In this document: one piece after another, positions 7,851 to 64,000 of the stretch
How the letters are laid out: each line of letters opens with the position of its first letter
How positions within the stretch are numbered: position 1 is the stretch's first letter
Virus record (IMG/VR): IMGVR_UViG_3300040801_005525
Location: 18,838-82,837 of that record
Strand: one strand, 5' to 3'
Source: a virus
DNA length: 64,000 nucleotides
Made by a program: the position numbers and the translations under genes
Notes under the pieces: model-generated
Told to the model about the DNA's origin: nothing
What the model saw: the letters and a program-made list of their open reading frames with translations, nothing else
Databases searched by the model: none

Positions 7851-7943
7851 TTTGTAAATATTTTTTCTTTGATTTTTATTTCTTGTCAATATATTGTAGT
7901 CGTGCTCTCTGACCACTCACCTTACTTCAGACCAGGAGACCTC

Positions 7944-9014
7944 ATGAGTTCCCGCATTAAATACGACTCCGCACAGGCCGCTTCATGGCTCGAAATGCTT
8001 CAGACCACCAAGAAGGGGGCGAGCGACCTCATCGGTGTGAGCAGGCCACGCTTTGACAAGATCCTCGAGCAGGGAGCGAGCGACACCGAAGCGCTCGCCA
8101 TGAAGTTTGTCGAACGTGAGCATCTTCAAGCCGCAAGGCTCGCTTCACAGATGTCCCCGATGACCGCAGTCAAGCTTGCCTTCGAGAACATCGAATCCAT
8201 CTATCGTAAGGAGGAAGGCACGACCGATCATGACACGGGGATCGAGCTTGGAGATGAGGGGAGGCTCGTGTTGCCTTCACCTGGGTTGGTCGTCGTGACA
8301 GGACCACCCTCGAGTGGAAAGTCTTCCCTGCTGCGCCAGCTCGTCTCGCAGAAACCCATGGCGAGCCAACTTGCTTATCTCTGTCTCGAACAACCCATGA
8401 CCGAAGCCGTCATCAAGCTCATGTGCCAGGTCGCGCGTATCCACTCGAGTCACATCAAGACAGCGCGCCTCAGCGAGAATGACTGGGCACGACTCATCAA
8501 GGCTGCTGGCGATCTCTCCGAGGCAAACGTGAGCATGATCGGTCAAACCTGGGCGCTCGATGACATCATCGAGCATGTGCACGCCTTACACGCCACACGC
8601 GGACTCGATGCCTTCGTGCTCGACGGCCTTGGTCTCGTCGAAGTGCACGATGCGCGATCACGATCCGAGGAGCTCGCACGTGTGGTACGCAAGCTCAAAA
8701 AGCTTGCCTATGAGCTTGGCATTCTCGTCGTCACCAGCGCCCATACTCAGAGCCAAACAGCGCGCCACAAGCGACCATCGCTCGCAGACATCGAGCAAGC
8801 TCCCGGTCCTCTTCACTACGCAGACACGATCCTCGCATTGCACCGTGAAGAGCTCTTTGACCCAAACTCTGAACTCAGGGGGATCGCGGAGCTCCATACG
8901 CTCAAGCATCCTGACGGGCAACTCAGGACAACGCCCCTGCGCTTCTTCCCCCAATACGGACGCTTCGAGCCGCTCAGTGAGAAGGATCGGCAAGATGCAT
9001 TCTCCTTCCTCTGA
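7944..9014 (+). CDS. Xre/Cro-like HTH fused to a degenerate DnaB C-terminal (RecA-fold) domain
   Basis: N-term KKGASDLIGVSRPRFDKI; Walker A GPPSSGKS, CLEQ, VLDG, KRPSLADI, ADTILALHRE; CAGGAG RBS. Confidence 0.85.
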   Translation: MSSRIKYDSAQAASWLEMLQTTKKGASDLIGVSRPRFDKILEQGASDTEALAMKFVEREHLQAARLASQMSPMTAVKLAFENIESIYRKEEGTTDHDTGIELGDEGRLVLPSPGLVVVTGPPSSGKSSLLRQLVSQKPMASQLAYLCLEQPMTEAVIKLMCQVARIHSSHIKTARLSENDWARLIKAAGDLSEANVSMIGQTWALDDIIEHVHALHATRGLDAFVLDGLGLVEVHDARSRSEELARVVRKLKKLAYELGILVVTSAHTQSQTARHKRPSLADIEQAPGPLHYADTILALHREELFDPNSELRGIAELHTLKHPDGQLRTTPLRFFPQYGRFEPLSEKDRQDAFSFL

Positions 9015-20079: not shown

Positions 20080-22495
20080 GGGGGTCTCCTTTGACCGCGC
20101 CACCTGGCTCGCGGATCTGGTCAGCGTCATTGGCGTAGTAGGCGTGCGCGCGCTCGAAGCATTCGACGTGCGCGGTGTTCGCATAGGTGTCCGAGCGTGC
20201 GAGCCGCACCACGCGCTTCCAGGACACGTTCGTCATGGTCTCGCCATAAGCGGGACTCTTCACATAGAGCGTGTCGCCCACAATGTGTGCGACCGTGGCG
20301 AGCACGTTCCCCGACCACCTCACGCCCCAGGGCTCCCAGATCTCGATCTCATCGCCCACCTTGAAGCTCTGCGCGTCCGGGTCATCGAGCCCATAGAGCG
20401 CCCCTCCTGTCAGCTGCCAGAAGCCGCCGGTCTCGACCGCGGCCTCGATGCGCATCGACGGGGCCCGAAGGCGCGCGAGCAGCGCGGTGTTCCAGCTGAT
20501 GAGCAGCATCTCGAGCGCGCAGGTCAGGTTCTTGATGCCAAACCCTCTGGCGATGAGCATCCCGGTGAACCGCACGCGTGTATCGAGGTCTTCGAGCGAG
20601 GGGTTCGTGATGAGCTTCGGGCGCGCGCCAGGCACGGGTACAGGAAGCCTTGGGTCCTCGGGGAGCCCTTGCGCGAGCGTGACGAAGCTCCCGATGTCAT
20701 AGGGGTCGAGATCGAGCGTCTTCGAGTCTGGCGCCACGACCGAGAGCCTTGGGAGCGAGAGGTAGGCGAGCGCCCCCTGGGCGCGAAGCTGGGCGGAGAG
20801 CAGATCCCCTGCATCGCCGTCACCGCGCGTGATGAGCGCGCTCTTCGGGATCGTGCGCAGGTCGAGTTCGATGGCGTAGGGGGAGGCCACCTCGAGCTTC
20901 TCGCTCCCCTCGTAGTCGCCTGCGGCGCCGAGCTTCACGATGATCTCCGAGGGCGCCTCCCATGGCAGACCTCCCACCTGGGCCCTGACCTCCTCGACGG
21001 CTTGCGTGTAGGCGTCCTCGATCTTCAGGGTGCCGCCCTGTGCGGGCGAAATGATGCGTAACCCCTGAGCCTGGGCAGCGCAGAAGGTGCGCACATCGAG
21101 CGCGGCGAACCCCTTGACGCTCAGCCGGTTTGCCTCGGTGACCGCCATGAACTGCCCGGCAGGGCCCATCACCATCTCGAAGGTGTCGAACACACTTGGC
21201 ACCTCGCCATCCCAGCCGAGCAGGATCTGCTCGAGCGGCAAGGCATCCTGGCATGCCTCGATCGCCTCAGCCCATGACGCATGATCGAGCAGGTAGGACA
21301 CATCCCTGCTCCACACCGGCGTGTGCACATCGAAGCGCTCGGCATCAAAGGAAATGAGGCCCTGCAAGCTCGTGCTCGTCAGGAGCGCATACATCACCGC
21401 GGCGCGGTTGTAGGGGTTGTAGAGGGCGCGTGCACTGCTCGCGAGCGCGCTCGACGCGCTCACGGGTTGGCCTGTGCGCGCGTCGAGCTCACGCGAGATG
21501 AGGTAGACCTCGCGCACCTCCAGGCCCGCGCTCGACACGTCCTCGATCACGCCACCTGTCTCGAGCATCTGTGGACCCGAGCCGAGCAGCGCGACGCCGC
21601 CTGCAAGCTCCTTCAGGTTCCCCAGCCGGATCTCGTCCTTGCCCGGCGTGTACTTGCCAAGGAAGAGCCCCTGGCCGATCTGCAAGGCGACGATGCTGTA
21701 CTGGGTGGAGATGGTCTTCTTGACGCCAGGGAGCGCGCCGGTCATGTCGATGAAGCCCGAGGCGTAGAGCGCGCCCGTGGCGCCGATGCGTGTGAGCTTG
21801 ATGTGCGCGCGCGCGGTGAGCGTCCCCATGGCGCGCGCCATGGGCATCTGCCCGAGCGCTTCGAACCCGCTGGAGCACTGCAAGGTGAGGGTCGTGCACG
21901 TGTCGTCTGTGGCCATGGCGGTGAGCACGCCATGCCAGCGCGGCACGTACGCATGCTCCACGGGGTCATACACCACGAGCTGCACATCACGCCCTTTCTT
22001 CTGAGGCGGCCCGAGGTAGACCCCCGCGCCCACAGGGTAGGCGCTCTTTTTGGACTCCCAGAAGCCTCGCACGCTCCCGATGTAGCCGACTCCTGGCGAA
22101 TAGGCGCCGAGCTTGATGGCCTCGCGTCCGATGAAGACGACCCTGTCCTGATGGCCCTCGACCCACAGGGGGATCGTGCCCCCCTCGCGCGTGGCGGGCG
22201 CGGAGAGTGTGGCAAAAGGGATGGGCTCCTGCCACTGGAGCATCTCGACGACTTTGGTGTGCCAGGGCATCTCGAAGGCGTAGGCGCTCGTCTGCATGGT
22301 GCGCGCGATGGGGTCGACCGCATCATTCACGCTCTCAGGCATCTGCTCGAGCGTGTAGTCCTCGAGCTCCACACCCCCTGGCGCAGGCGTGATCCTGTGC
22401 CACTTTCGAAAGCCGAAGATCGTGGCCGCGAGCAGGGTCTCATCCCGCCCGAGCCCCAGGATCTTCAAGCCGTACTGGAGGTCTTGATCGCTCAC
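20072..22495 (-). CDS. Tail tip / hub protein (Tal-like position)
   Basis: 807 aa; second gene after the tape measure. Confidence 0.6.
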   Translation of the reverse strand: MSDQDLQYGLKILGLGRDETLLAATIFGFRKWHRITPAPGGVELEDYTLEQMPESVNDAVDPIARTMQTSAYAFEMPWHTKVVEMLQWQEPIPFATLSAPATREGGTIPLWVEGHQDRVVFIGREAIKLGAYSPGVGYIGSVRGFWESKKSAYPVGAGVYLGPPQKKGRDVQLVVYDPVEHAYVPRWHGVLTAMATDDTCTTLTLQCSSGFEALGQMPMARAMGTLTARAHIKLTRIGATGALYASGFIDMTGALPGVKKTISTQYSIVALQIGQGLFLGKYTPGKDEIRLGNLKELAGGVALLGSGPQMLETGGVIEDVSSAGLEVREVYLISRELDARTGQPVSASSALASSARALYNPYNRAAVMYALLTSTSLQGLISFDAERFDVHTPVWSRDVSYLLDHASWAEAIEACQDALPLEQILLGWDGEVPSVFDTFEMVMGPAGQFMAVTEANRLSVKGFAALDVRTFCAAQAQGLRIISPAQGGTLKIEDAYTQAVEEVRAQVGGLPWEAPSEIIVKLGAAGDYEGSEKLEVASPYAIELDLRTIPKSALITRGDGDAGDLLSAQLRAQGALAYLSLPRLSVVAPDSKTLDLDPYDIGSFVTLAQGLPEDPRLPVPVPGARPKLITNPSLEDLDTRVRFTGMLIARGFGIKNLTCALEMLLISWNTALLARLRAPSMRIEAAVETGGFWQLTGGALYGLDDPDAQSFKVGDEIEIWEPWGVRWSGNVLATVAHIVGDTLYVKSPAYGETMTNVSWKRVVRLARSDTYANTAHVECFERAHAYYANDADQIREPGGAVKGDPHG

Positions 22496-23439: not shown

Positions 23440-26400
23440 TCAAGCCGAGCGCGCGAGCGTGCGGCGGGTGTCCTGATCGCTGGCTTGCCTGATCTCGCGC
23501 GCGATCTGCGGCGCGCTTTGCAGGAGCGTCGCGTTGTCAAAGCTGATCTGGTAGGTGATCGAGGTGGGCGCCTCGAGCTGGTCACGCAGCGCCCTGGCGT
23601 AGGCCTCGGCGCTCTTGGTGCGCTCGACTTCCAGGTCAAGCCGCGTGGCACGTGCAGCGCCCGCACCCGCCCCGCTCGCGCCCCCTCCGGAGCCTCCCGC
23701 CCCCGAGGCCCCGGCCACGCCCGCCACGATGCCATACTTGAGCGCGCTCGCCCCATGCAGCGCGGCGCCCTGCGCGAACGCAGGCACACCCGTCGTGGCG
23801 AACAGCGCGAGGTTCGCGAGCGCGGCGGCGCTCTCGATGAAGACCTGCGTCTTCGCGCGCTTCTTCGCATCCTTGATGAACACGTCGGCGAGCTCGCTGC
23901 CGATGCCTGCCACCGCAGACAGCGCGCTCTGGGTGAGCTTTGCCGCATCGGCCGCCGTCTTCTGGCTCGCCGCATACTCGAAGGTCTGCGCGGTCAGCGC
24001 ACCCACGCTCTCAGTCACGCTCGAGAGCACCCCGAGGCGCTCCTGAAGCTGGGCCTGGTTGCGCTGCTCGAGCTCGAACTCCTGCTCGAGCTGCTCGATC
24101 CTGCGGTCGAGGAAGTCCGTGCTCCCCCCGCGCGCAGCCACGTTGTCCCGGTTGGCGCGCAGCTCATCGATGCCCGATTGACGCTCGGCGAGCAGGTCTC
24201 GGCTCAAGCTCGAGGTGTCCACCGAGAACCCCTGCACGGCGCCCTGCGTGACCGCATCGGGGACGAGGCGAGCGCGCTGCTTCTCGATCTCGAAGAGCTC
24301 GCGCGTGGCGGTCATCTCGGCGTTCCGGATGCGGAGCGCTTGCTCCTCTTGCGTGAGCGCGCTCTGCCTGATCTGGGTGATCTGTTGCGCGAGTTCGAGA
24401 TCGATGAGGCGCATGGCCTGCGCTTCTCCCGCAAGCCGCGCCGATTCGATGCGCGCGCTCTGAAGCGCCTCGACCTCGGCGCGCTCCAGGGCGGCGAGCT
24501 CCGTGAGCCTCGCCTGGTTGACGAGGTACTCCTCCTCGACACGACCACGCGCGCCGAGCTCCTCGTTCTGCCTGATCTGGGCGATGCGGCTCCGGGTCTC
24601 GAGTTCGATGGCCTCGCGCTGCTTGCCCTGGGCGCGCAAGATCGCCACCTGGCGACGCGTGGACTCTTCGGCGCGCTCCTGCTCGATGGCCTCGAGTTCA
24701 TCGGTGAGCTCTCGCTCGATCCGCACACGCTCGGCCACGAACTCATCGTTCAAGAGCTTCAAGAACCTCTCCTGCTTCTCCTCCTTGACGCGCGCGAGCT
24801 CCTCCTCGTTGGCGAGGATCTTCTCGTCGAGTTCGAGCTGTTTCAAAGCGGCGCGTGCCCTGGCCTCCTCCTGCCGTGTGCTTGCCGAGGCCAACTCTCT
24901 GTTCAGGATGAGCAGCTGCTCGCGATGAAAGATCTCTGCGTCGGTGATGTAGTCGATGCGCGCGCGAGAGGACGCAGGGGGTGTATCCCCCTCATCGGGC
25001 ACCACAGGGGCTCTGGGCTGTCGCACCACGTTCCCGAAGCCCTCGAGCACGGCCGCCGAGCCTGAGGCCGTCAGGCTGGTCGTGAGCTCATATTGTGTGG
25101 CGAGCGCACGGTTCGAGGCGATGATGGCCTCCTCCATCTCGCGGTAGCGCTCGGAGAGCGTCGAGAGCGACTGCCCTGCCACAAACGCGATCTCGGGCTG
25201 GGTGCGAAGCCGCTCGTTCACACCGCTCACACGCTCACTTGCCGCGGCGAGCGCCTCGCCGAACTCATCCCCGATCTTCGCGCTCGCGGCGTACGCCCTG
25301 CCCGACTCATCGACGAGTCGGTTGGTGTCCTCGAGGACCACGCCGATGTCCTCGAGGTTGTCCTCGAAGTTCGTGGTGAAGTCGTCGATGTTCTGGGCGG
25401 CCTCGGAGAAGTCGAAGGTCAACGCGTTGAAGAAGGCGCGCGTGGCGAGCGTCCCGTTCTCGAGCGTGCGCAGGTAGATGCGCCCCGCGCGCGTCACGAC
25501 ACCAAGACCCTGCGCCACCTCGATGAGCCCGCCACCGAGGCGCGCGAGCACAGGGATGGCGAGGCTCCCCGCATCGAGCAGCGCGACGAGCACATCGACC
25601 CCCTCCTCGGCGAGCACGTCGAACTGCTCGAAGAGCGCGTTGTTCTTCTGGAGTTCCTGCCCTTGCCCGGAGAGCGCGATCGCGCTCTCCTTGACCACAG
25701 GCAAGAAGCGCTTGCCGATCGTGATGGCGTTGGCCTCCATGACGCTCAGGAAGATCCTGCCCTGTGCGCTCGCCGTGTCGTTGACCGTGGCGTTGAACTC
25801 GCGCGCGGTGCCCTCGGCGGCCTTGAAGCGCGCCGTGTAGCGATCGAGCACGCCCGTGCCCTGATTCAAGACGGTGATGAGCGAACGGCCCGCCACCTCC
25901 CCAAACAACCGAAGCACATCGGCGTTCGAGATGCCTGCGGCCTCGAGGTCGCGCAGCACATCGGCGAGCTGGCGCACGCTCCCGTCGCTGTTCTTGACCT
26001 CGACGTTGTACTTCTTCAGGACCGCCTGGCCCTCGGCCGTGGTCTTTTGCAGGCGAGAGAGCGCGTTGGCCGTGGCGCGGCCTGCGCGGGTGGACTTGAT
26101 GCCCGAGTTCGCGAGCGCGGCGAGGATCGCGGCGGTGCCCTCGAGCGTCTGGTTCGAGGCGCTCGCAATGCCCGCGGTGTAGCTAAACGCGTTGCCGAGC
26201 TCCTCGACGTTCGTGTTCGCCCCGGTCGACGCGCTCACGAGCACATCGTTGACGCGCGCGAGGTCTTTGACCTCGAGGTTCAAGCCCGTGAGGATGTTCG
26301 TGGAGATGTCTGCGGCGCGCGCGAGATCGAGGTTCCCTGCGGCGGCGAGCTCGAGGCTCCCGGGCAGCGCCCCCACGCTCTTCTGGGCGTCGAGCCCTGC

Positions 26401-26988
26401 CTGGGAGAGGAATTGCAGGGCGCTTGCGGCCTCACGTGCGGTGAAAAGCGTCCTCTGAGACTGCTCGAGCGCGGCCTCATCAAAGAGCGCGAAGTTCCCC
26501 CCTCCGCTGATGGCGTCGACACGCGCGAGCTGCTGGGTGTATTCGGCGGCCGTCTCCACGCTCGACTGCAAGGCGCGTCCCTGCACGAGCACCGCGTCGG
26601 TCAGGACGCGGATGCCCCCTTCGACGAGCTGAATGCCTGCGTAGACCCCCGTGTAGCGTCTGGCCACGATCCCGAGCGCGTCAGACTGCCCACGGTAGGC
26701 GCGCGTGCTCTGACGGATCGCGCGCACCTCGGCCTGGGAGAGCCTGTTCTTGGCCGTGGCGGTCTTCAAGAGCTCTTGCACGGCGCGGCGCTGGTCTCGC
26801 GCGGCCTTGAACTGTGCGTTCGCGGCGCGGGCGGCCTCCTGGCTCGAGCGCGTGACGCGCTTGTTCGCACGCGCCACGGTCGCCAGATCGCTCACCAACT
26901 CCCCGTACTCGCCCTTGAACGCGGCGAGCGTGCGCGTGGCCTGATCGGCATCGGCTGTGACCTCGAGCTCGAGGTATTCGGCGCGCAT
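23440..26988 (-). CDS. Tail tape measure protein (TP901-type core)
   Basis: FTAREAASALQFLSQAG..LELAAAGNLDLARAADI..ANTNVEELGNAF..LANSGIK..RLFG; long and helical. Confidence 0.95.
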   Translation of the reverse strand: MRAEYLELEVTADADQATRTLAAFKGEYGELVSDLATVARANKRVTRSSQEAARAANAQFKAARDQRRAVQELLKTATAKNRLSQAEVRAIRQSTRAYRGQSDALGIVARRYTGVYAGIQLVEGGIRVLTDAVLVQGRALQSSVETAAEYTQQLARVDAISGGGNFALFDEAALEQSQRTLFTAREAASALQFLSQAGLDAQKSVGALPGSLELAAAGNLDLARAADISTNILTGLNLEVKDLARVNDVLVSASTGANTNVEELGNAFSYTAGIASASNQTLEGTAAILAALANSGIKSTRAGRATANALSRLQKTTAEGQAVLKKYNVEVKNSDGSVRQLADVLRDLEAAGISNADVLRLFGEVAGRSLITVLNQGTGVLDRYTARFKAAEGTAREFNATVNDTASAQGRIFLSVMEANAITIGKRFLPVVKESAIALSGQGQELQKNNALFEQFDVLAEEGVDVLVALLDAGSLAIPVLARLGGGLIEVAQGLGVVTRAGRIYLRTLENGTLATRAFFNALTFDFSEAAQNIDDFTTNFEDNLEDIGVVLEDTNRLVDESGRAYAASAKIGDEFGEALAAASERVSGVNERLRTQPEIAFVAGQSLSTLSERYREMEEAIIASNRALATQYELTTSLTASGSAAVLEGFGNVVRQPRAPVVPDEGDTPPASSRARIDYITDAEIFHREQLLILNRELASASTRQEEARARAALKQLELDEKILANEEELARVKEEKQERFLKLLNDEFVAERVRIERELTDELEAIEQERAEESTRRQVAILRAQGKQREAIELETRSRIAQIRQNEELGARGRVEEEYLVNQARLTELAALERAEVEALQSARIESARLAGEAQAMRLIDLELAQQITQIRQSALTQEEQALRIRNAEMTATRELFEIEKQRARLVPDAVTQGAVQGFSVDTSSLSRDLLAERQSGIDELRANRDNVAARGGSTDFLDRRIEQLEQEFELEQRNQAQLQERLGVLSSVTESVGALTAQTFEYAASQKTAADAAKLTQSALSAVAGIGSELADVFIKDAKKRAKTQVFIESAAALANLALFATTGVPAFAQGAALHGASALKYGIVAGVAGASGAGGSGGGASGAGAGAARATRLDLEVERTKSAEAYARALRDQLEAPTSITYQISFDNATLLQSAPQIAREIRQASDQDTRRTLARSA

Positions 26989-27039
26989 GGGGAGGCGGCC
27001 TCCTGGCAAGGGGGTGCTGTGGGGGGGATAGGGAGGGGG

Positions 27040-27484
27040 TTATTTGTATTTTTTCTTGAGCTCGTCGTGGACCTCGGCTTCGGCCGCAAGCCAGATGTCA
27101 TCGCCGATGTCGGCAAGCTCGGTGATCCAGTAGGGCTTGTGGTAAAGGTCCCCCAGTCGACCTGGCCTGATGAGCTTGAGATAGGTGTGGGCCAGGTCCC
27201 CGGCTCGACCATAGTCATGAGGGCGCCGCTCGGGATCAGGCACATCAAAGCCTTCGGCCTGTCCGAGCTCGCGCCACAGGTCCATCTCAGGAAGCCTCAT
27301 GAGCTCGTCATGCAGCGCTTCACACTCCTCACAAGGGAAGAGGTCTGTGCCGCAGAAGGGGTCGTGGTCGTTTCGAAGGTGCGCCACATCCATGGCGAGG
27401 CGCTCCTTGCTCTGGGCGTGCTCCTCGGGGACCGACTTGCTCCTGAGGAGCGCGCGTTCAAGCAGGTCGGTCAGGTTTTTTTTT
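27040..27484 (-). CDS. Tail assembly chaperone gpT-like segment, read by -1 frameshift
   Basis: -1 frame is open from the A9 slippery run to just before the tape measure. Confidence 0.7.
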
Positions 27485-28250
27485 CCTCGGCATCGAGCCC
27501 TTCTGCAATGGCATACCCGAGCGACACGAGGTTCTTGAGCATCATGGCGCTGTCCCCGAGGCGCAGCAGCACGCCGTTCTGACGATACTCCTCGCTCTCC
27601 TCGCGCCAGATGACAGGCACGCGGTCGTTGCTGCCCTCCGAGCGCTTGGTGAAGTTCGACAGGCGGGTGACATACTTCATGGCGAGCGCGAGGTGGTGTT
27701 TGACATCCTCGAACTCGAGCACGTGGAATACACCACGACGCGGCGCCCATTGAACGTGTGCGTGACCATGCGCATCAAGCTCGACTTCCTCGAGGAAGAG
27801 GTCCGGATCTTCAAAGGCTTCCTCCTCCTCCTCGGACGGGTTGGGCTCCTGAGAGGGAGAGTCTGTCTCGGCATCCTCTTCGGCCTTTGCAGAGGCTTCG
27901 ACCTCGGCCTGATCCTCAGAAGGCGCTTCATCCTTTGGTGCGAAGTGGCTCCACGGTGCCACCTTGATTTTGATGCGTGCGCCCGGTTCGCCCTGCACCT
28001 CGATCTCCACGAAGCGCCCATGCAATAACTCGCTGAGACGCTCGAGCTCTCCATCAATGAGCTCCTCCTCCTTGCGCTGGACAATCTGGTCCTGCCGACG
28101 CCACTTCTGGCGATCCTCCAGCGTCACGGGATTGAACCAGATCTTGGGTACGCTGCGTTGGTCGTACTTCTCCGCATCGCGGTACTGCAACGGAACGAAG
28201 CTCTTCTCGTCATCGATAAAAAATTCAGCCATCACATCACGCAAATACAC
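27471..28250 (-). CDS. Tail assembly chaperone (gpG-like)
   Basis: Between tail tube and tape measure; ends GAG GAA AAA AAA ACC TGA; start uncertain. Confidence 0.75.
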   Translation of the reverse strand: MYLRDVMAEFFIDDEKSFVPLQYRDAEKYDQRSVPKIWFNPVTLEDRQKWRRQDQIVQRKEEELIDGELERLSELLHGRFVEIEVQGEPGARIKIKVAPWSHFAPKDEAPSEDQAEVEASAKAEEDAETDSPSQEPNPSEEEEEAFEDPDLFLEEVELDAHGHAHVQWAPRRGVFHVLEFEDVKHHLALAMKYVTRLSNFTKRSEGSNDRVPVIWREESEEYRQNGVLLRLGDSAMMLKNLVSLGYAIAEGLDAEEKKT

Positions 28251-43709: not shown

Positions 43710-43939
43710 GCACTATCCCTCGCTGAGCCTTCGAAACTCTGCCTTGAATGCCAAGAAATCGAACGCCTCCTTGGTCTTGTCTGGATGCACGACGAGTACG
43801 CCTGTCATCGTGAACTTGAGCCGGGTGAGACACGTCGTGATGTAGATGAACCTTTCGATCACCACGCGCTCTCCCGTACTCCTGCACTCGTACTCCCCAC
43901 CCTCCTCGAGGAAGTTCAAGGGATCTGGCACACCGCGAT

Positions 43940-45181
43940 TCATGCATCCTCCCTGGGCGGGCACATCGCCCTGAACCCCTTGCAGGGCTCGAAGCGACAC
44001 GCCACGTCATGGAGCGTCACGTGCTTGCCGCGCGCCATGTCCATCACGACAGGGAGAAGCTCAGCGTGCGCCTCCTTGCACCTGAGCGCGAGGCCCTTGA
44101 AGTAGTCATGATCGCGTGGCGCATCACCCCACAGAGTGTCCCAGCGAAGGAGCATGCCTCCCGCACACGCTTTCAAGCCCGTCACGCCGATCTTCCACAC
44201 CTTGAACGCCTCGAAGTGCGCGGCGTACTCCGCCATGAGCTCCTCCTCGTGCAACCCCTGCTCGAGCAGGTAGGTCTTGAACGCCTCCCATGTGTCGAGC
44301 TGGGCGTTCCAGCACGTCTCCACCACGCGCTTGTAGGAGCAGTCGAACTTGAGCGCATGCATGCGCACGTAGGCTTGCGTCTTGACCTTGACCCGGTGCA
44401 CGACCTCGCCGTTTTGCTCGAGCTGCACGACGAGCCCCTCGTGCAAGCCGCTCTTCATCTCGACTGAAAAGATGGCATCCTCGATGCTGCCGCTGTAACG
44501 CTCGGGCAAGGGAAGGGCGAGGTGCACGCTCAACCCCTCCATCGCCTCAAAGCCCATGTAGTGACCCCATGGATGCTCGGCGTCAGGGTGCACATAGACG
44601 GCATGGAGCACGAGCCCCGTCAACTGCCCGTAGCGCGTGATGATCCTGTTCTCGGGGTGAATGAGCTCACAGATGAGCGTCTTGCCGTACACGTACCTGG
44701 GGTCGAGCGCGCTCGCGTCATGCGAGGTGAGGATCGCGCGCGCCGCTTCCACGAAGCTCCACCCGGTCAAACCCTGTGTGCCCTCCCCTGCCCCGCGTGT
44801 GGCGAGCAGCACCTCTCCCTCATGCTCGAAGATCTGGATCATCGTGCCATCGAGCTTCTCGCAGAGCACGGCCTGGGCGCCCTCGTCGAGCAGGGTGTCG
44901 TGCAGGGTCGTGGCCGCCTGATGCAGCCCCAGGTTGTACATCTTGACGAGCGGGAGGCTCACCACGCGGTAGGGATCGCGCGCGTACACGATGCCCTTTG
45001 AGAGCAGCTCGTGAGGCTTCGCTGGCTCGGGGAGTTGCGGGCCACAGGTCGCCACGATCAGGCCATGGGCCATCTCGCGCTTCTTGATGCGGGGATCGGC
45101 GTCGATCTCGCGGAGCACACCGTGAGGGCACTCGGTCAAGGTCCTGAGCAGGTAGGGGATGTGCAGGGGGTGGAAGTCCAT
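43940..45181 (-). CDS. T4 Rnl1-like RNA ligase
   Basis: KMYN, EKLDGTM (motif I), ATRG, ELIHPENRII, EGLVV, RVKVK. Confidence 0.85.
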   Translation of the reverse strand: MDFHPLHIPYLLRTLTECPHGVLREIDADPRIKKREMAHGLIVATCGPQLPEPAKPHELLSKGIVYARDPYRVVSLPLVKMYNLGLHQAATTLHDTLLDEGAQAVLCEKLDGTMIQIFEHEGEVLLATRGAGEGTQGLTGWSFVEAARAILTSHDASALDPRYVYGKTLICELIHPENRIITRYGQLTGLVLHAVYVHPDAEHPWGHYMGFEAMEGLSVHLALPLPERYSGSIEDAIFSVEMKSGLHEGLVVQLEQNGEVVHRVKVKTQAYVRMHALKFDCSYKRVVETCWNAQLDTWEAFKTYLLEQGLHEEELMAEYAAHFEAFKVWKIGVTGLKACAGGMLLRWDTLWGDAPRDHDYFKGLALRCKEAHAELLPVVMDMARGKHVTLHDVACRFEPCKGFRAMCPPREDA

Positions 45182-45245
45182 GATGACCGTGGTGTAAGTG
45201 GGAGGGGGTGTGGGGGGGTGGGGTTCTTTTTTCTTGTCAGGGGAT

Positions 45246-47666
45246 TTAGCGCTTGCGCTGCTGCTTTCTCGCCTGTCTGGCTTTTCTCTTCTTCTCCCGA
45301 CGCTTCCTCTTCCTGTTCGAGCCATGGAGCGCGCAGTCAACTCTGGCGATCTGCTCACGGTGTGCGCCGAGCGTCTCGAGGCCCTTCGCCACGCTCGAAA
45401 GCGCCGCAGAGAACGCCTCGCCGATGGAGGGGATGCGCTCATCCCCTGTCCTGTCCTGGGGGATGGGTTCGACGCGCTCCATGTGATCGAGGGCAGCCAT
45501 GATGCGTCTCCCGGTATCGGTGATGGCCGGGGTCATGAGCGCACGCTGGGTCATGATCCTGTGTGGGCCTGGCTGACGGAGCTTGGCGAACGCGTTCCCC
45601 AGCGCAGTGACCTGGTCGTTTGTGCGTGTGGAGGTGTCAGCGAGCACCTGACTCATCCGGGCTGCGTCTTCCTCGGAGATGGGGTTGGCGAGATGGCGAA
45701 GTCGCGCTATGGGGTCATCACTCCCGGGCGGAGTCTGGATGCCCACACTCACAAAGGAGGGGCCAGCAACACGCCCCTGGATGTACCTGACCCCCTCCTC
45801 GTTGAGCTTCACCTCGGCGCTCATGCCATGCTCATCCTGGCGCACACTCGTCACCTCACCAAGCGGTTCTCCCTGCCCGTTGAGCTGCCTGACGACTCGA
45901 GGATGCTCTCGAGAGCCATCCAGATGAAGGATGTCCACCTCATCACCGGGCTCGACATGGTGGGCACGTCCTGCGACGCCACGAAGCTCGAAGGTGCCTT
46001 GTTCGGGGTCGAGTCGGCAGAAGAACACCTGCCCCTGTGCGCTCACGAACTCCAGCTCGTCTTTGGCAAGCTCTTGCGAGCTTCGTATATCGGCGCCGAG
46101 CATGGCCCCGTGGACATCGAGCGTCGTCCCCTCACCCACGCGCACCTCGGTGATGCGTGCCTCGGCAAGTCGCCTCGCCCTGGTTAGCGCGAGCGCCGCG
46201 AGTGAGGAAGTGTCATGGGCGTGCGTGGCCTCCAGATAGGTGCCTTCGACCTCATCCTCGTCGAAGACATACACGCCAGGCAGAGGACGGTCCGCTCTTG
46301 TCAGCTGCTCGACATGCATGTCCGGACCCGAAGCAAAATCAAGGTCACAGGTCAGGGGCTCGTCGCCATCGATCACGTCGCGCAAAGCATGTGCATAGGC
46401 TCGTGCCGATGCCTCGCGTTGCTCTGAAGACGAGGGCAACTTTGGCCCAACCTCATCCCACACGAGCCGGTGATGCATATCGAGAGGCGTGGTCCGCAGA
46501 TCCGTTTTATCCTGAACATAAAGCTCCAGGAGGAGGAGGCGGCGCAGCGGTGCAAGATGATCTCGACACTGTATGAACGCACGACCTGGTCTTGTGCCGA
46601 ACAGGCGGATCAGGTGTGCATCGCTCACGCGCTCTCGCACCGTATCGATGAGCAGGTCGGTCAGGTCGCGCAGATGTCCATTGCGACGAAACAGGCGCAC
46701 ACCAAGCGCCTCGAACTCACGAGTGAGAGGAGAACTCGGGGTGATGCCGAGGAACCTCTTATGGGCATCTCGCCACACACCTCTGAGCGAGCGCCCGTGA
46801 CGTCCCATGTCAGCAAGCGCGCCCATCAACACCCCTGCACCCTCCGCGCTGTCTGCAAGAGGCGCAACGCCCACATCGCTGCGCTCAAAGACATCGACCA
46901 TCTCCTCGGTTGAGATGTTCGCCCCCCTCGAGATGATGTCGATGACGCGGCGCTCATGCGCAAGGGATCTGGCAGGGCTCACGTGCTCTCTTACATCGAG
47001 CTCTTGGGCACGCACTGGAATTCCGCTGTGCAGAAGCGCGGCGTGCAAATGTCCCGCCATGGCATCGTCAGGGCTGTGCCAGGTCGAACCCATGGCACGC
47101 ACGGTGAGCATACGTCCCTCGTCCCATCCATCGAGTTCATTCATGATGGCCTTGATGCGTGTCACCACAGCGAGCGGCACATAGCCATGGTGAGTCACCT
47201 CACCTGCGCCCTCCATGAACGCGAGGCCATCGCGTGTCTCGACGATGTCCACGGGCAGCCGGCCCGACCTGGTCATCGAGGCGCCCTGAAGCTCACACGC
47301 ATCCCAGACATCGAGCACCTCACGACGACCACGGGGGAGGTTCGAACCCGTGCTTTCGGCCTCGGCGCGTGCGCTCCGCACCTCTCCGGCGAGCTGCGCG
47401 ATCACCCCATCGAGGCTCGCGCAGGCACACACCTGACCATCCTGACCTGTGACCTGCCATGCCCCTTCCGACACGGACACCGTGCAGCTGCGCCGGGCAG
47501 GCAGGGCGAGGCGCGCCCACATCTCACCTGTGTCGGCGAGGTAGGGGTCATCCTTCCTGCGCGCGAGCCGGTGCGCTTGCCACGAGACGAGCAGCGCGGG
47601 AAGCCTCGTGAGCAGGTCATCGAACAGGAGCGCGTCACGCTCATGATGTGTGGGGTCACAGGTCAA
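45246..47666 (-). CDS. 806-aa mosaic protein with degenerate tape-measure and prohead-protease fragments
   Basis: Segments align by eye with this phage's TMP and protease (see findings); basic C-terminal tail. Confidence 0.7.
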   Translation of the reverse strand: MTCDPTHHERDALLFDDLLTRLPALLVSWQAHRLARRKDDPYLADTGEMWARLALPARRSCTVSVSEGAWQVTGQDGQVCACASLDGVIAQLAGEVRSARAEAESTGSNLPRGRREVLDVWDACELQGASMTRSGRLPVDIVETRDGLAFMEGAGEVTHHGYVPLAVVTRIKAIMNELDGWDEGRMLTVRAMGSTWHSPDDAMAGHLHAALLHSGIPVRAQELDVREHVSPARSLAHERRVIDIISRGANISTEEMVDVFERSDVGVAPLADSAEGAGVLMGALADMGRHGRSLRGVWRDAHKRFLGITPSSPLTREFEALGVRLFRRNGHLRDLTDLLIDTVRERVSDAHLIRLFGTRPGRAFIQCRDHLAPLRRLLLLELYVQDKTDLRTTPLDMHHRLVWDEVGPKLPSSSEQREASARAYAHALRDVIDGDEPLTCDLDFASGPDMHVEQLTRADRPLPGVYVFDEDEVEGTYLEATHAHDTSSLAALALTRARRLAEARITEVRVGEGTTLDVHGAMLGADIRSSQELAKDELEFVSAQGQVFFCRLDPEQGTFELRGVAGRAHHVEPGDEVDILHLDGSREHPRVVRQLNGQGEPLGEVTSVRQDEHGMSAEVKLNEEGVRYIQGRVAGPSFVSVGIQTPPGSDDPIARLRHLANPISEEDAARMSQVLADTSTRTNDQVTALGNAFAKLRQPGPHRIMTQRALMTPAITDTGRRIMAALDHMERVEPIPQDRTGDERIPSIGEAFSAALSSVAKGLETLGAHREQIARVDCALHGSNRKRKRREKKRKARQARKQQRKR

Positions 47667-48085
47667 AAGAGCTCCTCGAGTTCATCATCGAGTGCCGCAC
47701 CAAAGGTCTGATCCCACAACCAGCCATCACGTTCTTCGTCCTCTCGCTCGATACGATCGCGGTGCGTGGAAGGATGATCCTCCTCGGCGAGTTCAAAGCT
47801 CACATACCGAAACCCGCGCGTGACGCGTTGTGTTCCAGGGTCGAAGGGCTCCTCGAAGACGACCGCGTCGATGCACTCCCACTCGATGCGGCCAAGCTCG
47901 ACATACTTGATCTCGGCACACCCGACGACCATGCCATCGAGTTGGAAGAAGATGAGGTCGCCCGGGTGGACGCCCCTGGGCAGTCGGCCCATCTCCCACC
48001 ATGCGTAACCCTCATCGGGCTCGAGCTTGTCCTCGATCAGATGGGTGCCCTCGTCTTTCGGGCAGATGACACAGATGTCACTCAT
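47663..48085 (-). CDS. ASCH/PUA-like domain protein
   Basis: PGDLIFFQLDGMVVGCAEI..RGFRYV. Confidence 0.5.
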   Translation of the reverse strand: MSDICVICPKDEGTHLIEDKLEPDEGYAWWEMGRLPRGVHPGDLIFFQLDGMVVGCAEIKYVELGRIEWECIDAVVFEEPFDPGTQRVTRGFRYVSFELAEEDHPSTHRDRIEREDEERDGWLWDQTFGAALDDELEELF

Positions 48086-49415: not shown

Positions 49416-49764
49416 CGACCTCCTGCACGCGTATCTCGACGCGTGGTGTATCCGCTCGCGTGAAGCGCCTGACCCGCAGTTCGCACACCTGCCTGTCGTT
49501 GTCATAGAGCACACCTTCGAGCGCGTCCTGGATCCCCTTGGCGTAGTTGTCCACATCGCCCATGCGGCTCCGGTTCGTAAGGTACACATCGATGTGCAGG
49601 GTCACGAACGCCTTGCCCCAGGAGCGCGCGCCCTCACACAGCGCCGCACCCCCGACCGTGCGCTTCCACACCGTATAGGCAGCCGTGTTTCTTCGCCCCT
49701 TGCCCGCGGTGCGATCCCAGGTCTTTGGGCGCCCTGGGAGTGTCATCTGGAAGGTGCGCATCAC
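49399..49764 (-). CDS. rusA: RusA-like Holliday junction resolvase
   Basis: GDVDNYAKGIQDALEGVLYDNDRQV..PRVEIRV. Confidence 0.9.
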   Translation of the reverse strand: MMRTFQMTLPGRPKTWDRTAGKGRRNTAAYTVWKRTVGGAALCEGARSWGKAFVTLHIDVYLTNRSRMGDVDNYAKGIQDALEGVLYDNDRQVCELRVRRFTRADTPRVEIRVQEVDDAGW

Positions 49765-50315
49765 ATGCTCACATCGCCATAGGGGAGAAAGAGCTCGCGG
49801 AAGCGCAGCCGCCCCAGTGTGCCGCCAATGTAGGTGACCTGCGTCTCGTGCGGCACGCGCTTGAACTGACGCTCGCCCTCATGCTCGGTATAGAACTCCA
49901 CGCGCTCTGAGAGCTTGCAGTGCGCAAACCCCGCGAGCACGCGCCCCCAGCGCGTCGCGTTCACGCTCTTGGTGACGAGGATGAGCTCGTTGACCTCCCC
50001 GTTGATGTAGGCCTCGACCGCGCGCGCGAGCCACACGCCCATGGAGCTCTTCTTGACGCCAAAGCGCGTGGTCATCCGGCAGTAGGGCGGGTTCAGGAAC
50101 ACGGTCGTCTCCCGCCCATGGGTCTGCCAGCACTTCGTGAGGCCATCGTCCTCGGCGGTGAAGAACGTGCGCGCCCCGACGACCTCCTGGGCCTTTTTGC
50201 AGCTCGCCGGGTCGAGGTCGATGCGTCCACCGAGCGCCTCACGGCTCAGGGTCACGAGCCAGGCGGGGGTGTACCACTCGATGTCTTTGGAGAGGTGTTG
50301 GGCGTTGGCGGCCAA
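49761..50315 (-). CDS. Phage DNA N6-adenine methyltransferase
   Basis: EWYTP..IDLDPAS..DDGL..W..VFLNPPY; probable TTG start. Confidence 0.85.
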   Translation of the reverse strand: MAANAQHLSKDIEWYTPAWLVTLSREALGGRIDLDPASCKKAQEVVGARTFFTAEDDGLTKCWQTHGRETTVFLNPPYCRMTTRFGVKKSSMGVWLARAVEAYINGEVNELILVTKSVNATRWGRVLAGFAHCKLSERVEFYTEHEGERQFKRVPHETQVTYIGGTLGRLRFRELFLPYGDVSM

Positions 50316-50406
50316 GGGGATCTCGTGTGCTGTGGGGGGAAGGGAGTGCAGGGGTGACACCGTCGCGAAGGCATCGGTGCGGGGGGTGCAGAGGGGAGGA
50401 GGGGTC

Positions 50407-50850
50407 TTACTCTTCTTCTTTTTTGGGGTCGGGTTTCTGGGCAGGATGGGGTGGCGCGGGGGAGGGCGCAGGCGGCACGGCCTGAGGAGGGCCGGGGAGC
50501 ACATGGCGACGAAAGGGTGGGGGAGAGGGGCGCTGGGGTCGGGGTGTCGTCTTCACGTCGGCATCCTTTGAGGAGAAGGACTCGCGCGCGGCGAGGCCGT
50601 GGAGATCAGAGCAGGGAGGGAGGTGATGAAAGCGCTGCACGGCAGCGAGCTCGCGGGTCAGGTAGGTCACCTGGGCACACAGGGCGTCGTGGGTGGCGCC
50701 GAGCTCCTCGACGAGCTTCAGGATGTGCTTGCAGGTGTAGGCGATGCCTGGCTCACGCCGCTCGAGCACGCGCAGGTCTTGCTTGATGCGCTCGCCTGGG
50801 GTCATCGATGCGTCAGGGGTTGTGTCGGACAAAGCGAGGTATCGATCCAT
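50407..50850 (-). CDS. Hypothetical protein
   Basis: CAGGAG RBS; Pro-rich C-terminus. Confidence 0.55.
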   Translation of the reverse strand: MDRYLALSDTTPDASMTPGERIKQDLRVLERREPGIAYTCKHILKLVEELGATHDALCAQVTYLTRELAAVQRFHHLPPCSDLHGLAARESFSSKDADVKTTPRPQRPSPPPFRRHVLPGPPQAVPPAPSPAPPHPAQKPDPKKEEE

Positions 50851-57905: not shown

Positions 57906-59441
57906 TCACATCCAATCGTTGTCATCCTGCACCACGTTGAGGTGCAGCACGTGTTTTCCTTGTTCATTTTGCTGAACACGGTCAGCGCGAAAGTCTGAGC
58001 CATAGCGCCCATCGAGGTCTGCGATCTTGCCGGTCTTGCCATCGAAGAAGAGCTTCGTGGTGCCGATGGCGCCTTCTCGATACTTGCGGGTGATGATCTC
58101 CATCACGCCCACGTCCTCGGTGTTCGGGTCATACACCTCATCACGGTAGATGAAGCTGATGATGTCGCCATCCTGCTCGAGCTGACCGGCTGCTTTCAGG
58201 TCAGACATCCAGGGGCGCTTGTCGGTGCGATCCTCACACTTCCTGTTGGGCTGGGCGAGCGCCGTGATGTTGCACTCGAACTCGCCAGCGAGCTCTTTCA
58301 AGGTGCGTGAGGTGTTCGCCACGAGGTCCACATCAGAGGCATTCGGCATGGCCCTGTTGCGCACGATCTGGGCGTAGTCGATGAACACGACATCGAGCCC
58401 TCCTGGCATCTCGGCCACCTTCCGGATCTGACGTCGAATCCTTGAGATGTCACACCCCGGAGCATAGTCGATGGCGACCTGAGCCTCGATGAGCTTGCCT
58501 GTCTCGTGCACGAACTTCGTCCACTGTTGCCTGCTCACGCTCTTGTTTTTGAGCGCGCTCCTCGAGAGTCCCGAACGTGAGTAGAGGATGCGCTGATACC
58601 ACTGCGACGGCTTCATCTCGAGCGAGAAGATGAGCACGCGCTTGCCCTGATCGAGCGCGAGGTTTGCCGCAAGCGTACCCGCGAGCGCGCTCTTTCCCAT
58701 CGAAGGTCTCCCACCAAGGTAGATGAGCTCGGTGGGCACGAACATGCCGTCATCAAAGAACTCATCGAGCGTCTTGATGCCTGTCGGCAAGCCTCGCATG
58801 ATGTGGGTCTGCTCACCCTTGTAGGTCGCTTCAGTGTCCTCGAACACGATCTTTGCGCCCTGCTTCCCCCAGCACAACTCCTCCTTGCCGTCATGCTCGG
58901 CGAGCAGCTCGACGAGCTTCCCCACGAGTTCCACAAAGCCCGGGTAGTCGTTCAAGTTGTCTGCGGCCTTCTGGATCAGACGCCTCGCCGCTTTGATGAA
59001 TTGCCAGAGCTTGGCTTTGCGTGAGATGATCGTGGCGTAGTAGCTGACATTCGTGGCGCTGGGAATCTCCGAGGAGAGGCGCGCCAGATAGTTTGGCCCA
59101 CCCACCGCATCAGAGAGCCCGTCAGCCTTGAGGTGATCGTGGACCGTGATGACGTCGATGGCTTCCTGCTTGTGGTAGAGTTCGAGCATCGCCCGGTAGA
59201 TGTGGCGATGACTCTCACGGTAGAACATCGTGGGGTCGAGCTCGCTCTCACAATACTCCATGACCGTATTATCAAGGAAAATCGCGCCGAGCGCGCTGCG
59301 CTCGGCCTCCTCGTTGTGGGGAGGGATGATGAGCTCGCCATCCCCGAGCGCCTGCTCGAGCGAGGCGATTTTCTTCTTGGCCTGCTCGAGGTCTTTCAAG
59401 ACGTGCTCGAGCTTGGGCTGGGGTGTCGCAGTCTGGTTCAT
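57906..59441 (-). CDS. dnaB: Replicative DNA helicase DnaB (intact)
   Basis: PPHNEEAERSALGA N-domain; GRPSMGKS, FSLEM, IDYAQ, AQPNR, RPWMSDL, EQDGD, KYREG. Confidence 0.95.
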   Translation of the reverse strand: MNQTATPQPKLEHVLKDLEQAKKKIASLEQALGDGELIIPPHNEEAERSALGAIFLDNTVMEYCESELDPTMFYRESHRHIYRAMLELYHKQEAIDVITVHDHLKADGLSDAVGGPNYLARLSSEIPSATNVSYYATIISRKAKLWQFIKAARRLIQKAADNLNDYPGFVELVGKLVELLAEHDGKEELCWGKQGAKIVFEDTEATYKGEQTHIMRGLPTGIKTLDEFFDDGMFVPTELIYLGGRPSMGKSALAGTLAANLALDQGKRVLIFSLEMKPSQWYQRILYSRSGLSRSALKNKSVSRQQWTKFVHETGKLIEAQVAIDYAPGCDISRIRRQIRKVAEMPGGLDVVFIDYAQIVRNRAMPNASDVDLVANTSRTLKELAGEFECNITALAQPNRKCEDRTDKRPWMSDLKAAGQLEQDGDIISFIYRDEVYDPNTEDVGVMEIITRKYREGAIGTTKLFFDGKTGKIADLDGRYGSDFRADRVQQNEQGKHVLHLNVVQDDNDWM

Positions 59442-60247
59442 GACTTCCCTCCTGGCACGAGTTCGAGGCGCCATGCACGGGCGAGCCTGATGTCTTGATC
59501 TGGCTTTGCTGCCATCTCTCCACGAATACGGTCGTGATACTGCCCATCAATGGCGAAGTGTCCAGCCTGCTTCAGGTCACCAAAGGACGCGTTCGACACG
59601 ATCATCACGCTCACCCCGAGGTCATAGAGTTCGGCGAGCAGCCCCCGCCAGCGCGACTTGGCCCACTCGGGCTGCTCGCCCCGCCCCATCTCGTCGATGC
59701 ACACCAGGTGGTGGCGCTTGATGTCCTGTTCGAACGCGTCGGCATCCTTTGACCCGAGGACCCTCATGGCCTGAGGTTCGGTGATGTACATCATCCTCGG
59801 CGCGCCGAGGTGGGGCACCTCATGAGCGCTGTTTCGTTTGATGTGAGCTCTGGCAATGAGCTCGATGCACTTGAGCATCGCCATGGTCTTGCCTGTGCCG
59901 TAGTCGCCCTGGATCCATGTGATGCGTGGCGGGTCCTCGCTGCCAAAAGCCTTGGCGTACGCGTAGGCCATGTGCTCAGGCTTGAACGGAATGCCACGCA
60001 TCTTGGCGAGCAGTTTCGCAGGCGCTTTGCTCTGTGCGAGCACGTGGGCAAGGCTTGCGTTGCAGCGCTCGACGCGCTTTGCGGCAAGAAAACCCGTCTC
60101 GCATGGCTCACATGACCCGAACACATACCATCCTCCTGTCAGCGGATCAGGCATCGGCTCGATGTACTCACGCTCACACACAGGACAGAGCTGTGGTGCA
60201 GGCTTGGGCTGGAGTTTGGGGAGGATGTCTTGCTTGTCTTCAATCAC
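59438..60247 (-). CDS. DnaC/IstB-like AAA+ helicase loader
   Basis: Zn-binding CxxC pairs; GDYGTGKT; CIDEMG; IVSN; DRI. Confidence 0.85.
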   Translation of the reverse strand: MIEDKQDILPKLQPKPAPQLCPVCEREYIEPMPDPLTGGWYVFGSCEPCETGFLAAKRVERCNASLAHVLAQSKAPAKLLAKMRGIPFKPEHMAYAYAKAFGSEDPPRITWIQGDYGTGKTMAMLKCIELIARAHIKRNSAHEVPHLGAPRMMYITEPQAMRVLGSKDADAFEQDIKRHHLVCIDEMGRGEQPEWAKSRWRGLLAELYDLGVSVMIVSNASFGDLKQAGHFAIDGQYHDRIRGEMAAKPDQDIRLARAWRLELVPGGKS

Positions 60248-62388: not shown

Positions 62389-63474
62389 TCATAGCAGGCC
62401 CTCCATGCTCTTGATGAGCGCGGACAGGCTCTTTGCTTCGACAGGGGTCTCGGCAGGGAGCGGCTTGATGGACCACAACACCCAGAGCTTGCCTTCAGCC
62501 TGGCAGTACTCGCGCGCGGGCACCTTCTGTTGCTCGAAGAGCGCGACCTTGCTCCCGAGCTCCGCGGGGGAGGGGAGCGGCGTGATGACACACTGCCCCT
62601 TCAGGGCAGCCTGTACGGCCTTTCGCCAGGCCGAGTCCGAGGGCTCCCTGAACGCGTTGACGGGCGGGAGAGGAGAGGTCGTCTCGTGCACCTCCTCCTC
62701 CTGTGCCTGTGTGCCAGGTTCGGAGCTCACCGGCGCGTCGAGCGGCACGAGCTGCTCGCCCTGATCGGCGCGCTTGAACACGCCAGTGGGCTGTGCATTG
62801 ACCTCGACCAAAGTGTCAGGCGTCTGAGCATTATGCTCAGATTCCACAGAGGCCGATTTCCTGTTCGACTCTCTGATCCCTGAGACATCGCGTGCCGTCC
62901 CATCCGCGCTCATGACCTTGTCGCGCTCGGGGATGATGTCCTGGTCGACCATCTCGCGGCGCACCTTGCTCACGAAGGTCTGAGACACGCGGCACTTCTG
63001 CGCGATCATGCGGTCAGACCACTTCCTCCACTCCTTGTCGCCAAGCGCCTTCTCCACCACACGGCGCTTATCAGAGCGCGTGCGACGAAGGCCGTGCTTG
63101 TCGTTGACCTGGAAGCTGTAGAGCAGCGCGTCGCGCAGCGTGCCTCGGTGACGCTTGACCTGGAAGTGCGTGATGCCCTTCTTCTTGGCGGCCTTGTAGC
63201 GGTGCCACCCATCCACGAGCCAGATCGTGTCACCCTTCTCGAACACCACGAGCGAGGGCCACTCGTCGCCAGACTGGTCGACGACGATCCCGTCGCTCCT
63301 GACCTTCATGTTCTGGGCGTACTCCTTGACGGCGTTGTCATCCTCGCTGACGCGCGGCTGGAGCTGGCGCTTCAGGGTCACCTCCTCGAGCGCGACCCTG
63401 TCTCGTTTGTCGCGCCCTGCCATCTGACCCACCACCCCGAGGCCCTTGTCACTCTTCTTGCGTGTTGCACCCAT
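62389..63474 (-). CDS. parB: ParB/Srx-domain protein with HTH
   Basis: LQPR..LVDGWHRYKAA..NDKHGLRRTRSDKRR..WSDRMIAQKCRVSQTFVSKVR; downstream of parA. Confidence 0.8.
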   Translation of the reverse strand: MGATRKKSDKGLGVVGQMAGRDKRDRVALEEVTLKRQLQPRVSEDDNAVKEYAQNMKVRSDGIVVDQSGDEWPSLVVFEKGDTIWLVDGWHRYKAAKKKGITHFQVKRHRGTLRDALLYSFQVNDKHGLRRTRSDKRRVVEKALGDKEWRKWSDRMIAQKCRVSQTFVSKVRREMVDQDIIPERDKVMSADGTARDVSGIRESNRKSASVESEHNAQTPDTLVEVNAQPTGVFKRADQGEQLVPLDAPVSSEPGTQAQEEEVHETTSPLPPVNAFREPSDSAWRKAVQAALKGQCVITPLPSPAELGSKVALFEQQKVPAREYCQAEGKLWVLWSIKPLPAETPVEAKSLSALIKSMEGLL

Positions 63475-63481
63475 AATGTCT

Positions 63482-64000
63482 TTAAATCCTTTGCGAAAAC
63501 CATTCGCTGACTGTGCGGTAATCCTGCGCGCCCTTGCTGTCCGGGGCATACTGGTAGATCGGTGTGGCATAGCCCATCGACTCGGCGAACACAATCGAGT
63601 GGTTGATTGGCGGGCTCGTCTGGCCCTCGTACTCGGTGTTCAGGTGTTCGACGACCTGGCTGGCGTGGTTCGTGCGCCCGTGGAGCATCGTCGGCACGAA
63701 CCCGAGCGTGAAGAGGTCGGGGTTCTCATGCTCCCTGACCTCCTCGATGGTCTGAAGCAAGTCATACATGCCGAGCAGCGCGATCGACATGCACTGCACC
63801 GGGATGATCACGGCGTCACTTGCAATCAACACGTTCTGCGTGATCACGCCGAGCTCGGGCGGGGAGTCGATGATGATGTGGTCATACTGCGTGGTGAAGC
63901 CTCGCAGAGTGTCACGCAGGCGTGTGAGCGCCACAGGCCTCTGCGCGAGCTCCGTGGAGACGCGCGCGAGCTGCCTGCCGCCTTCGATCAGGTCCACGCC
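63482..64000 (-). CDS. parA: ParA/Soj-family ATPase, 5'-truncated by the window
   Basis: YDHIIIDSPPELG..IASDAVIIPVQC..FAES..PIYQYAPDSKGAQDY. Confidence 0.92.
   Translation of the reverse strand, partial: GVDLIEGGRQLARVSTELAQRPVALTRLRDTLRGFTTQYDHIIIDSPPELGVITQNVLIASDAVIIPVQCMSIALLGMYDLLQTIEEVREHENPDLFTLGFVPTMLHGRTNHASQVVEHLNTEYEGQTSPPINHSIVFAESMGYATPIYQYAPDSKGAQDYRTVSEWFSQRI

Follow-up and report, generated by a model that had tools for sequence, protein, structure and literature searches.

An open reading frame (ORF) of 806 residues, here called ORF806 (P0001; 45246-47666, minus strand), was characterized in a window of 64,000 nucleotides that covers positions 18,838 to 82,837 of the virus record IMGVR_UViG_3300040801_005525. 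Our analysis points to a genuine, translationally coupled early or middle gene whose product descends, in rearranged and strongly diverged form, from a TP901-type tape-measure protein (TMP), possibly acting as a mimic; we give this reading a probability of about 0.55. Most likely, the gene is a paralogue of TMP origin, placed outside the tail module, that was kept open while diverging beyond the reach of curated models. TMPs serve as rulers of tail length and as injection aids, and recent work shows that bacterial and prophage defences target them as well. A first-pass annotation, made from the letters of the window alone, had described the same ORF as a patchwork of degenerate fragments of several virion proteins of the phage, possibly working as a decoy or as an inhibitor of assembly. 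The gene does contain diverged parts of a late virion protein within a single frame and lies away from the structural genes, but the multi-protein patchwork was not supported.

The first-pass annotation had located the 806-residue frame on the minus strand accurately, along with the four segments it singled out (a to d). It was also right in placing the gene among non-structural genes. Replication and methylase genes lie on one side and an RNA ligase gene on the other. ORF806 contains no stop in 806 codons compared with 10.7 expected from its own codon-position base composition (P ~2e-5), and the remaining five frames of the stretch carry 4 to 33 stops each. The first in-frame start is a TTG (47666-47664) and the stop is a TAA (45248-45246). 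A GAGGAG ribosome-binding site, read from the sequence, lies 5 nucleotides upstream of the TTG (47672-47677, minus strand), and the TTG overlaps the TGA stop of the preceding 140-residue ORF (TTGA). This pattern of a GAGGAG motif followed by a stop/start overlap indicates that ORF806 is translationally coupled. Codon models were trained on the confident early or late genes of the phage and all six frames were scored. The ORF806 frame was the best of the six, by a narrow margin similar to that seen for other unknown early ORFs. The GC content at third codon positions (GC3) is 0.71; early genes range from 0.58 to 0.87 and the large head and tail genes from 0.84 to 0.92. Judged by these features, ORF806 is, or very recently was, translated. 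We also considered ORF806 as a shadow of genes on the plus strand. This was rejected on the grounds that the plus-strand ORFs opposite it gave zero family matches, that the plus frame carries 4 stops and that the TMP homology lies in the minus frame.

Homology to TMPs was assessed for segments a, b and d by pairwise comparison, by profiles built without the TMP of the phage itself and by shuffle controls. The true TMP of the phage, which served as comparison reference, is encoded at 23440-27009 (minus strand) and is a PF10145 protein of 1189 residues with hydrophobic segments. The resemblance of segment a to this protein, first noticed by eye, was confirmed. Segment a corresponds to a diverged TP901-type TMP core at 46527-47096 (minus strand, residues ~191-380), with its profile-supported part at 46572-46919 (minus strand, residues 250-365). 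BLASTP aligned residues ~240-370 with residues 252-383 of the TMP at 29% identity over 139 columns. The E value was 4e-9 in the pairwise comparison and 4e-7 when the search covered the full set of 761 six-frame ORFs from the genome. A profile trained on 72 foreign TMP cores, from which the TMP of this phage was excluded, matched ORF806 with an E value of 6.7e-10 (31.4 bits). This was the sole non-TMP match in the genome, the next protein reaching 3.3 bits and the best of 2000 shuffled versions of ORF806 reaching 5.8 bits. The match is partial in that the profile covers ORF806 only at positions 118-231 and 101-129 of its 290 positions.

Searches of larger collections gave the same picture. Full HMMER against 1.84 billion representatives returned one other match, an unrelated 906-residue TMP (P0002, PF10145) aligning with ORF806 residues 171-377, and the TMPs of two IMG/VR phages (G001 and G002) matched segment a as well. 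About 39 matches to segment a were obtained among retrieved TMP loci, and foreign TMP loci scored as well as the phage's own TMP (50.4, 49.3 and 47.0 bits). Since foreign TMPs score equally, the earlier proposal that the fragments derive from the phage's own TMP does not follow; the core is no nearer to that protein than to TMPs of other phages. In the ESM Atlas, 29 of the 30 feature matches of the N-terminal half of ORF806 were PF10145 clusters. The Atlas also contains clusters of short proteins (170-315 residues) that comprise scarcely more than the PF10145 core itself and may be TMP fragments from short contigs or stand-alone cores. When ORF806 was compared by hhalign with an alignment of six TMP sequences, segment a alone was recovered (E 8e-4, probability 25%). 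At E values up to 10, the PF10145 Pfam model missed ORF806 both as a protein and in the six-frame translation of the genome. By sequence comparison, the core of ORF806 is thus a real but degenerate TMP homologue that is not a PF10145 member by the curated model.

Two further segments resemble other parts of the TMP family. Segment d (45585-45671, minus strand, residues 666-694) represents a second copy of a core motif at the homologous profile positions 101-129; the first-pass annotation had likewise aligned this segment with the TMP. The foreign-core profile scored it at 10.3 bits, with an independent E value (i-E) of 0.0018 genome-wide, above every one of the 2000 shuffles (maximum 5.8 bits). 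BLASTP against residues 248-276 of the phage's TMP gave 28.9 bits compared with 25.8 bits for the best of 400 shuffles, and for three unrelated TMP loci the best sub-threshold matches of segment d fell on the same core motif. Segment b (46332-46430, minus strand, residues 413-445), which had been likened to the TMP C-terminus, aligned with TMP residues 1129-1157 at 27.3 bits, a score reached by none of 400 shuffles. When a profile was built from the C-termini of four foreign TMPs, it matched the same residues at 7.9 bits (E 0.0097 genome-wide; shuffle maximum 5.1 bits, n=2000) and ranked segment b second in the genome, behind the TMP alone. All four family-invariant columns of the stretch (R, A, R, F) are matched in segment b, and this motif resembling the conserved C-terminus of the clade is internal in ORF806 rather than C-terminal. 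Further, when 114 ORFs were compared all against all, about 5 twilight pairs reached at least 27 bits, two of them ORF806-TMP pairs. Because segments a and d stand, the homology of segment b to the TMP C-terminus is probably real, although its scores are marginal while exceeding all shuffles.

The pieces had also been said to be out of order, diverged and held in one open frame. The first point applies to segment d; segments a and b keep the TMP order. The other two points were borne out, as all TMP-like pieces between 39 and 53 kilobases (kb) of the window lie in the ORF806 frame. At the DNA level, ORF806 and the TMP gene shared only random short matches, and since this similarity is gone the divergence from the TMP must be old.

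ORF806 differs considerably from a working TMP. For residues 1-190 similarity to nothing was found; the degenerate TMP core (residues ~190-380) and the TMP C-terminal-like motif (residues 413-445) follow. Residues ~450-660 form an acidic region without similarity that is strand-rich by a low-confidence model, and the extra core motif at residues 666-694 precedes predicted helices. The protein ends in a polybasic tail (45249-45320, minus strand, residues 783-806) in which 16 of the 24 residues are lysine or arginine, for a net charge of +15. Taken together, over half of ORF806 (residues 1-190 and 446-665) is without TMP similarity. The ruler is gone, with a spacing of ~50 residues between core and C-terminal motif compared with ~750 in the TMP. 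Maximum Kyte-Doolittle hydropathy over 19 residues is 1.15 for ORF806 and 1.98 for the TMP, the former lacking a hydrophobic segment, and the ORF806 protein is predicted to be soluble. The gene is also found outside the interval between the tail chaperone and the distal tail genes that defines a tail-module position. We did not file ORF806 as a TMP because the family-model score, the place of the gene in the genome and the missing ruler and hydrophobic segments all speak against such an assignment.

In comparison with TP901-family TMPs (PF10145), ORF806 would share the core homology, a later C-terminal-like motif and a second copy of a core motif. It differs in that it falls below Pfam detection, has a partial core and lacks both ruler and hydrophobic segments, whereas it carries extra unrelated regions, a polybasic tail and an early/middle location. 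TMP genes are reported to evolve by internal duplication and loss of units (PMC3271669), and ORF806 likewise appears to have lost the ruler and to have duplicated a motif. That study appears to concern working TMPs, whereas ORF806 is a separate gene whose product would be a TMP no longer.

Outside its core-matching TMPs, ORF806 stands alone. Among ~15 billion proteins we found no relatives other than TMPs aligning at the core; the same result was obtained with a word-indexed search (5.8e9 proteins), with HMMER on the 1.84e9 representatives, with tblastn against phages and with an IMG/VR scan. Pfam and PHROGs searches with the whole of ORF806 and with four sub-segments gave no significant family, the weak matches being limited to Caf4, RcpC and two PHROGs of unknown function (E 0.015-0.25), and a PDB sequence search with ORF806 returned nothing. 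Structure prediction was too poor to be informative. AlphaFold2 run without an alignment gave a mean predicted local distance difference test score (pLDDT) of 41.8, both for the whole protein and for residues 445-665, and the ESM Atlas model of ORF806 has a pLDDT of 0.41.

Based on these comparisons, ORF806 retains a degenerate TMP core (residues ~190-380) and, behind it in TMP order, the C-terminal-like motif (residues 413-445), with the extra core motif further on at residues 666-694. Its long helical ruler and its hydrophobic segments have been lost, and an unrelated N-terminal region, a strand-rich middle and a polybasic tail have been gained. The resulting protein would not measure a tail. 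It might instead be a soluble, cytoplasmic mimic of TMP interaction surfaces that is made before the late genes and binds a TMP partner; this is the mechanism that we prefer, although we consider it rather unlikely. A defence protein that recognises TMPs, or the tail-assembly partners of a competing phage, might be bound in this way.

Systems of this kind have been described. Tab, a prophage protein of Pseudomonas phage JBD26, recognises the C-terminal part of the TMP and blocks tail assembly, and anti-Tab in turn sequesters Tab (PMC10884400). SNIPE, a membrane nuclease, associates with TMPs during DNA injection (bioRxiv 10.1101/2025.11.03.685801). Because TMP-recognising defences such as Tab and SNIPE exist, a decoy or dominant-negative function of ORF806, as suggested in the first-pass annotation, is conceivable by analogy. 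The Tab/anti-Tab pair is phage-encoded and centred on the C-terminal part of the TMP, achieves counter-defence by sequestration and is encoded outside the tail module, near terminase genes. However, anti-Tab was not reported to be TMP-like, and its likeness to ORF806 would be a functional analogy only. The specific proposal that a soluble TMP mimic titrates Tab-like blockers or SNIPE-like nucleases, or poisons the tail assembly of competitors, is quite doubtful in our view. The gene neighbourhood provides weak context, as Dam-type methylases and RNA ligases are gene types often used in counter-defence and the methylase and RNA ligase near ORF806 would be compatible with such a setting.

The originally proposed multi-epitope decoy, assembled from pieces of the phage's own TMP, prohead protease and tail tip, was found to be barely credible. 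Its TMP-derived segments are real, but all supported pieces come from the TMP family alone, and for this reason the patchwork reading fails. The likeness of segment c (45741-45870, minus strand, residues 600-642) to the prohead protease is unsupported, with a BLASTP E value of 0.14 and 6.5% of shuffles scoring equally. The Peptidase_S78 Pfam model (PF04586) did not match ORF806, a small custom S78 profile scored it at -1.2 bits, and the alignment places a Leu opposite the presumed catalytic His of the protease. A degenerate peptidase in the middle region of ORF806 was considered separately and rejected, as no family match was obtained. The two shorter resemblances are of the kind produced by chance: about 191 nine-residue windows with at least 5 identities to the TMP would be expected for IGEAFSAAL/IGDEFGEAL and about 41 comparable eight-residue windows for EPGDEVDI/KVGDEIEI, the latter motif being carried by an 807-residue tail protein (20072-22495). 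None of the other virion proteins of the genome matched ORF806 in the six-frame ORF and 114-ORF all-against-all comparisons, and the equal scores of foreign TMP cores likewise speak against a copy of the phage's own proteins. Slightly less improbable, though still very unlikely, is a role as a virion or tail-assembly component of the phage, in which ORF806 would be an additional, short internal protein of TMP type whose gene lies apart from the tail module. The retention of TMP core and C-terminal motifs would fit this, and basic tails are found in some DNA-associated virion proteins. However, the gene lies outside the late operon of a phage whose tail module already encodes an intact, typical TMP of 1189 residues, the protein is without ruler and hydrophobic segments, and its GC3 is well below that of the head and tail genes.

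A more serious alternative, unlikely on its own but nearly as likely as the TMP mimic, is that ORF806 is a decaying relic, a piece of a TMP gene moved to the early region by illegitimate recombination that is now drifting and is open only because the event was recent. Several findings weigh against the derivation of a maintained gene and mimic that we prefer, and most of them would suit a relic. ORF806 is a singleton with a homologue in no collection searched, and the failure of Pfam to recognise its core is as compatible with decay as with a new function. The core is retained in part (profile positions 118-231 of 290), together with a stray duplicate motif, and segment b taken alone is only marginally significant. 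The codon signal is weak, with 0.24 bits per codon compared with 0.20 in the mirror frame, and both the AlphaFold2 and the ESM models are of very low confidence. The polybasic tail, finally, hints at binding to nucleic acids, a property for which the mimic idea offers no explanation. On the other hand, a drifting relic would not be expected to show 0 stops where about 11 are predicted, nor a good ribosome-binding site with stop/start coupling. The location of all TMP-like pieces in a single frame after loss of DNA-level similarity indicates an old divergence and yet an open frame, and GC3 has equilibrated to the level of the early genes. The same polybasic tail, with its net charge of +15 over 24 residues, is a hint at an exapted domain with an unrelated job, in which the TMP similarity would be a mere footprint; the protein could, for instance, be a scaffold that associates with nucleic acids and works together with the adjacent RNA ligase. 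This explanation, which we consider less probable than a relic, could account for the more than half of the protein without TMP similarity and for the position directly upstream of the RNA ligase gene. However, Pfam, PHROGs and PDB searches detected no nucleic-acid-binding or enzymatic families in ORF806, and the retention of both the TMP C-terminal motif and the second core motif would be left unexplained.

The significance of ORF806 depends on which of these readings applies. As a TMP-derived open gene outside the tail module, it shows that a structural gene can be duplicated, shortened and perhaps put to new use among the non-structural functions of a phage. If the mimic were true, ORF806 would be the first anti-defence or inter-phage weapon copied from a piece of the phage's own tail, and it would define a new class of proteins for counter-defence or competition between phages that could be found as diverged pieces of virion proteins in early regions. 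If it were only a relic, it would still be a clear example of orphan phage genes arising from old structural genes. As a tape-measure derivative outside the tail module, the gene would be of high interest only if a mimic function were shown.

The window belongs to a linear IMG/VR virus record of 82.8 kb that is estimated to be ~82% complete. The phage appears to be distant, uncultured and siphovirus-like, because the nearest matches to its terL in the phage collection are only ~33% identical. Most recognisable genes of the window, including ORF806, the RNA ligase, terS/terL and the TMP, are carried on the minus strand. The early or replication side contains a ParB-like protein (62389-63594, minus strand), the replicative DnaB helicase (57906-59474, minus strand) and a replication block with replication initiator, DnaC-like loader and exonuclease, also on the minus strand. 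A Dam-type methylase (49761-50504, minus strand) is followed by a DUF4326 protein and small unknown ORFs, then by ORF806, the RNA ligase and more small ORFs, all in minus-strand order. The late block lies downstream on the same strand and comprises terS, terL, portal, S78 prohead protease, capsid, further tail genes and the TMP. ORF806 is thus placed between the replication/methylase genes and the RNA ligase, upstream of terS/terL, in an early/middle array 18 kb from a tail module that has its own intact TMP. This position upstream of the packaging and late genes suggests that ORF806 is expressed before the late genes.

The longest ORF of the RNA ligase (43940-45442, minus strand) would overlap ORF806 by 197 nucleotides. 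Its ligase domain begins only at about residue 143, and a C-rich intergenic motif, read from the sequence, lies at 45197-45235 (minus strand), just past the TAA stop of ORF806. Most likely, the ligase starts at an ATG at 45181 rather than at 45442, in which case the two genes would not overlap. Searches around ORF806 yielded no Rfam family, and patterns of promoters or terminators did not rise above background.

A microbial-mat metagenome contains reads identical to the window. Two DNA runs from one microbial-mat sample yielded low-depth contigs identical to it with zero variants, and no RNA run containing ORF806 was found. Queries with the RNA ligase and the protease gave no close related phages. 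The sole near relative seen was a phage on a 20-kb Logan contig whose TMP (P0004) is 73% identical to the TMP studied here over its full length.

Further observations concern other genes of the window. Two overlapping ORFs just upstream of the TMP gene (27471-28250 and 27040-27750, minus strand) are arranged like a putative pair of tail chaperones that a programmed frameshift would produce. A second DnaB-like protein (7869-9014, plus strand) shares 26% identity over 284 residues with the DnaB helicase in the all-against-all comparison (E 1.6e-18). The N-terminal residues 3-78 of DnaB also align with residues 293-367 in the C-terminal part of the ParB-like protein. The stretch spans 78 residues with 29% identity, scores 32 bits (within-genome E 0.002) and may reflect a small common domain or chance. 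Finally, one contig of a metatranscriptome library from the same mat sample, too little to bear on expression, matches only 43900-43972, where it covers the 3' end of the ligase gene and the sequence past it.

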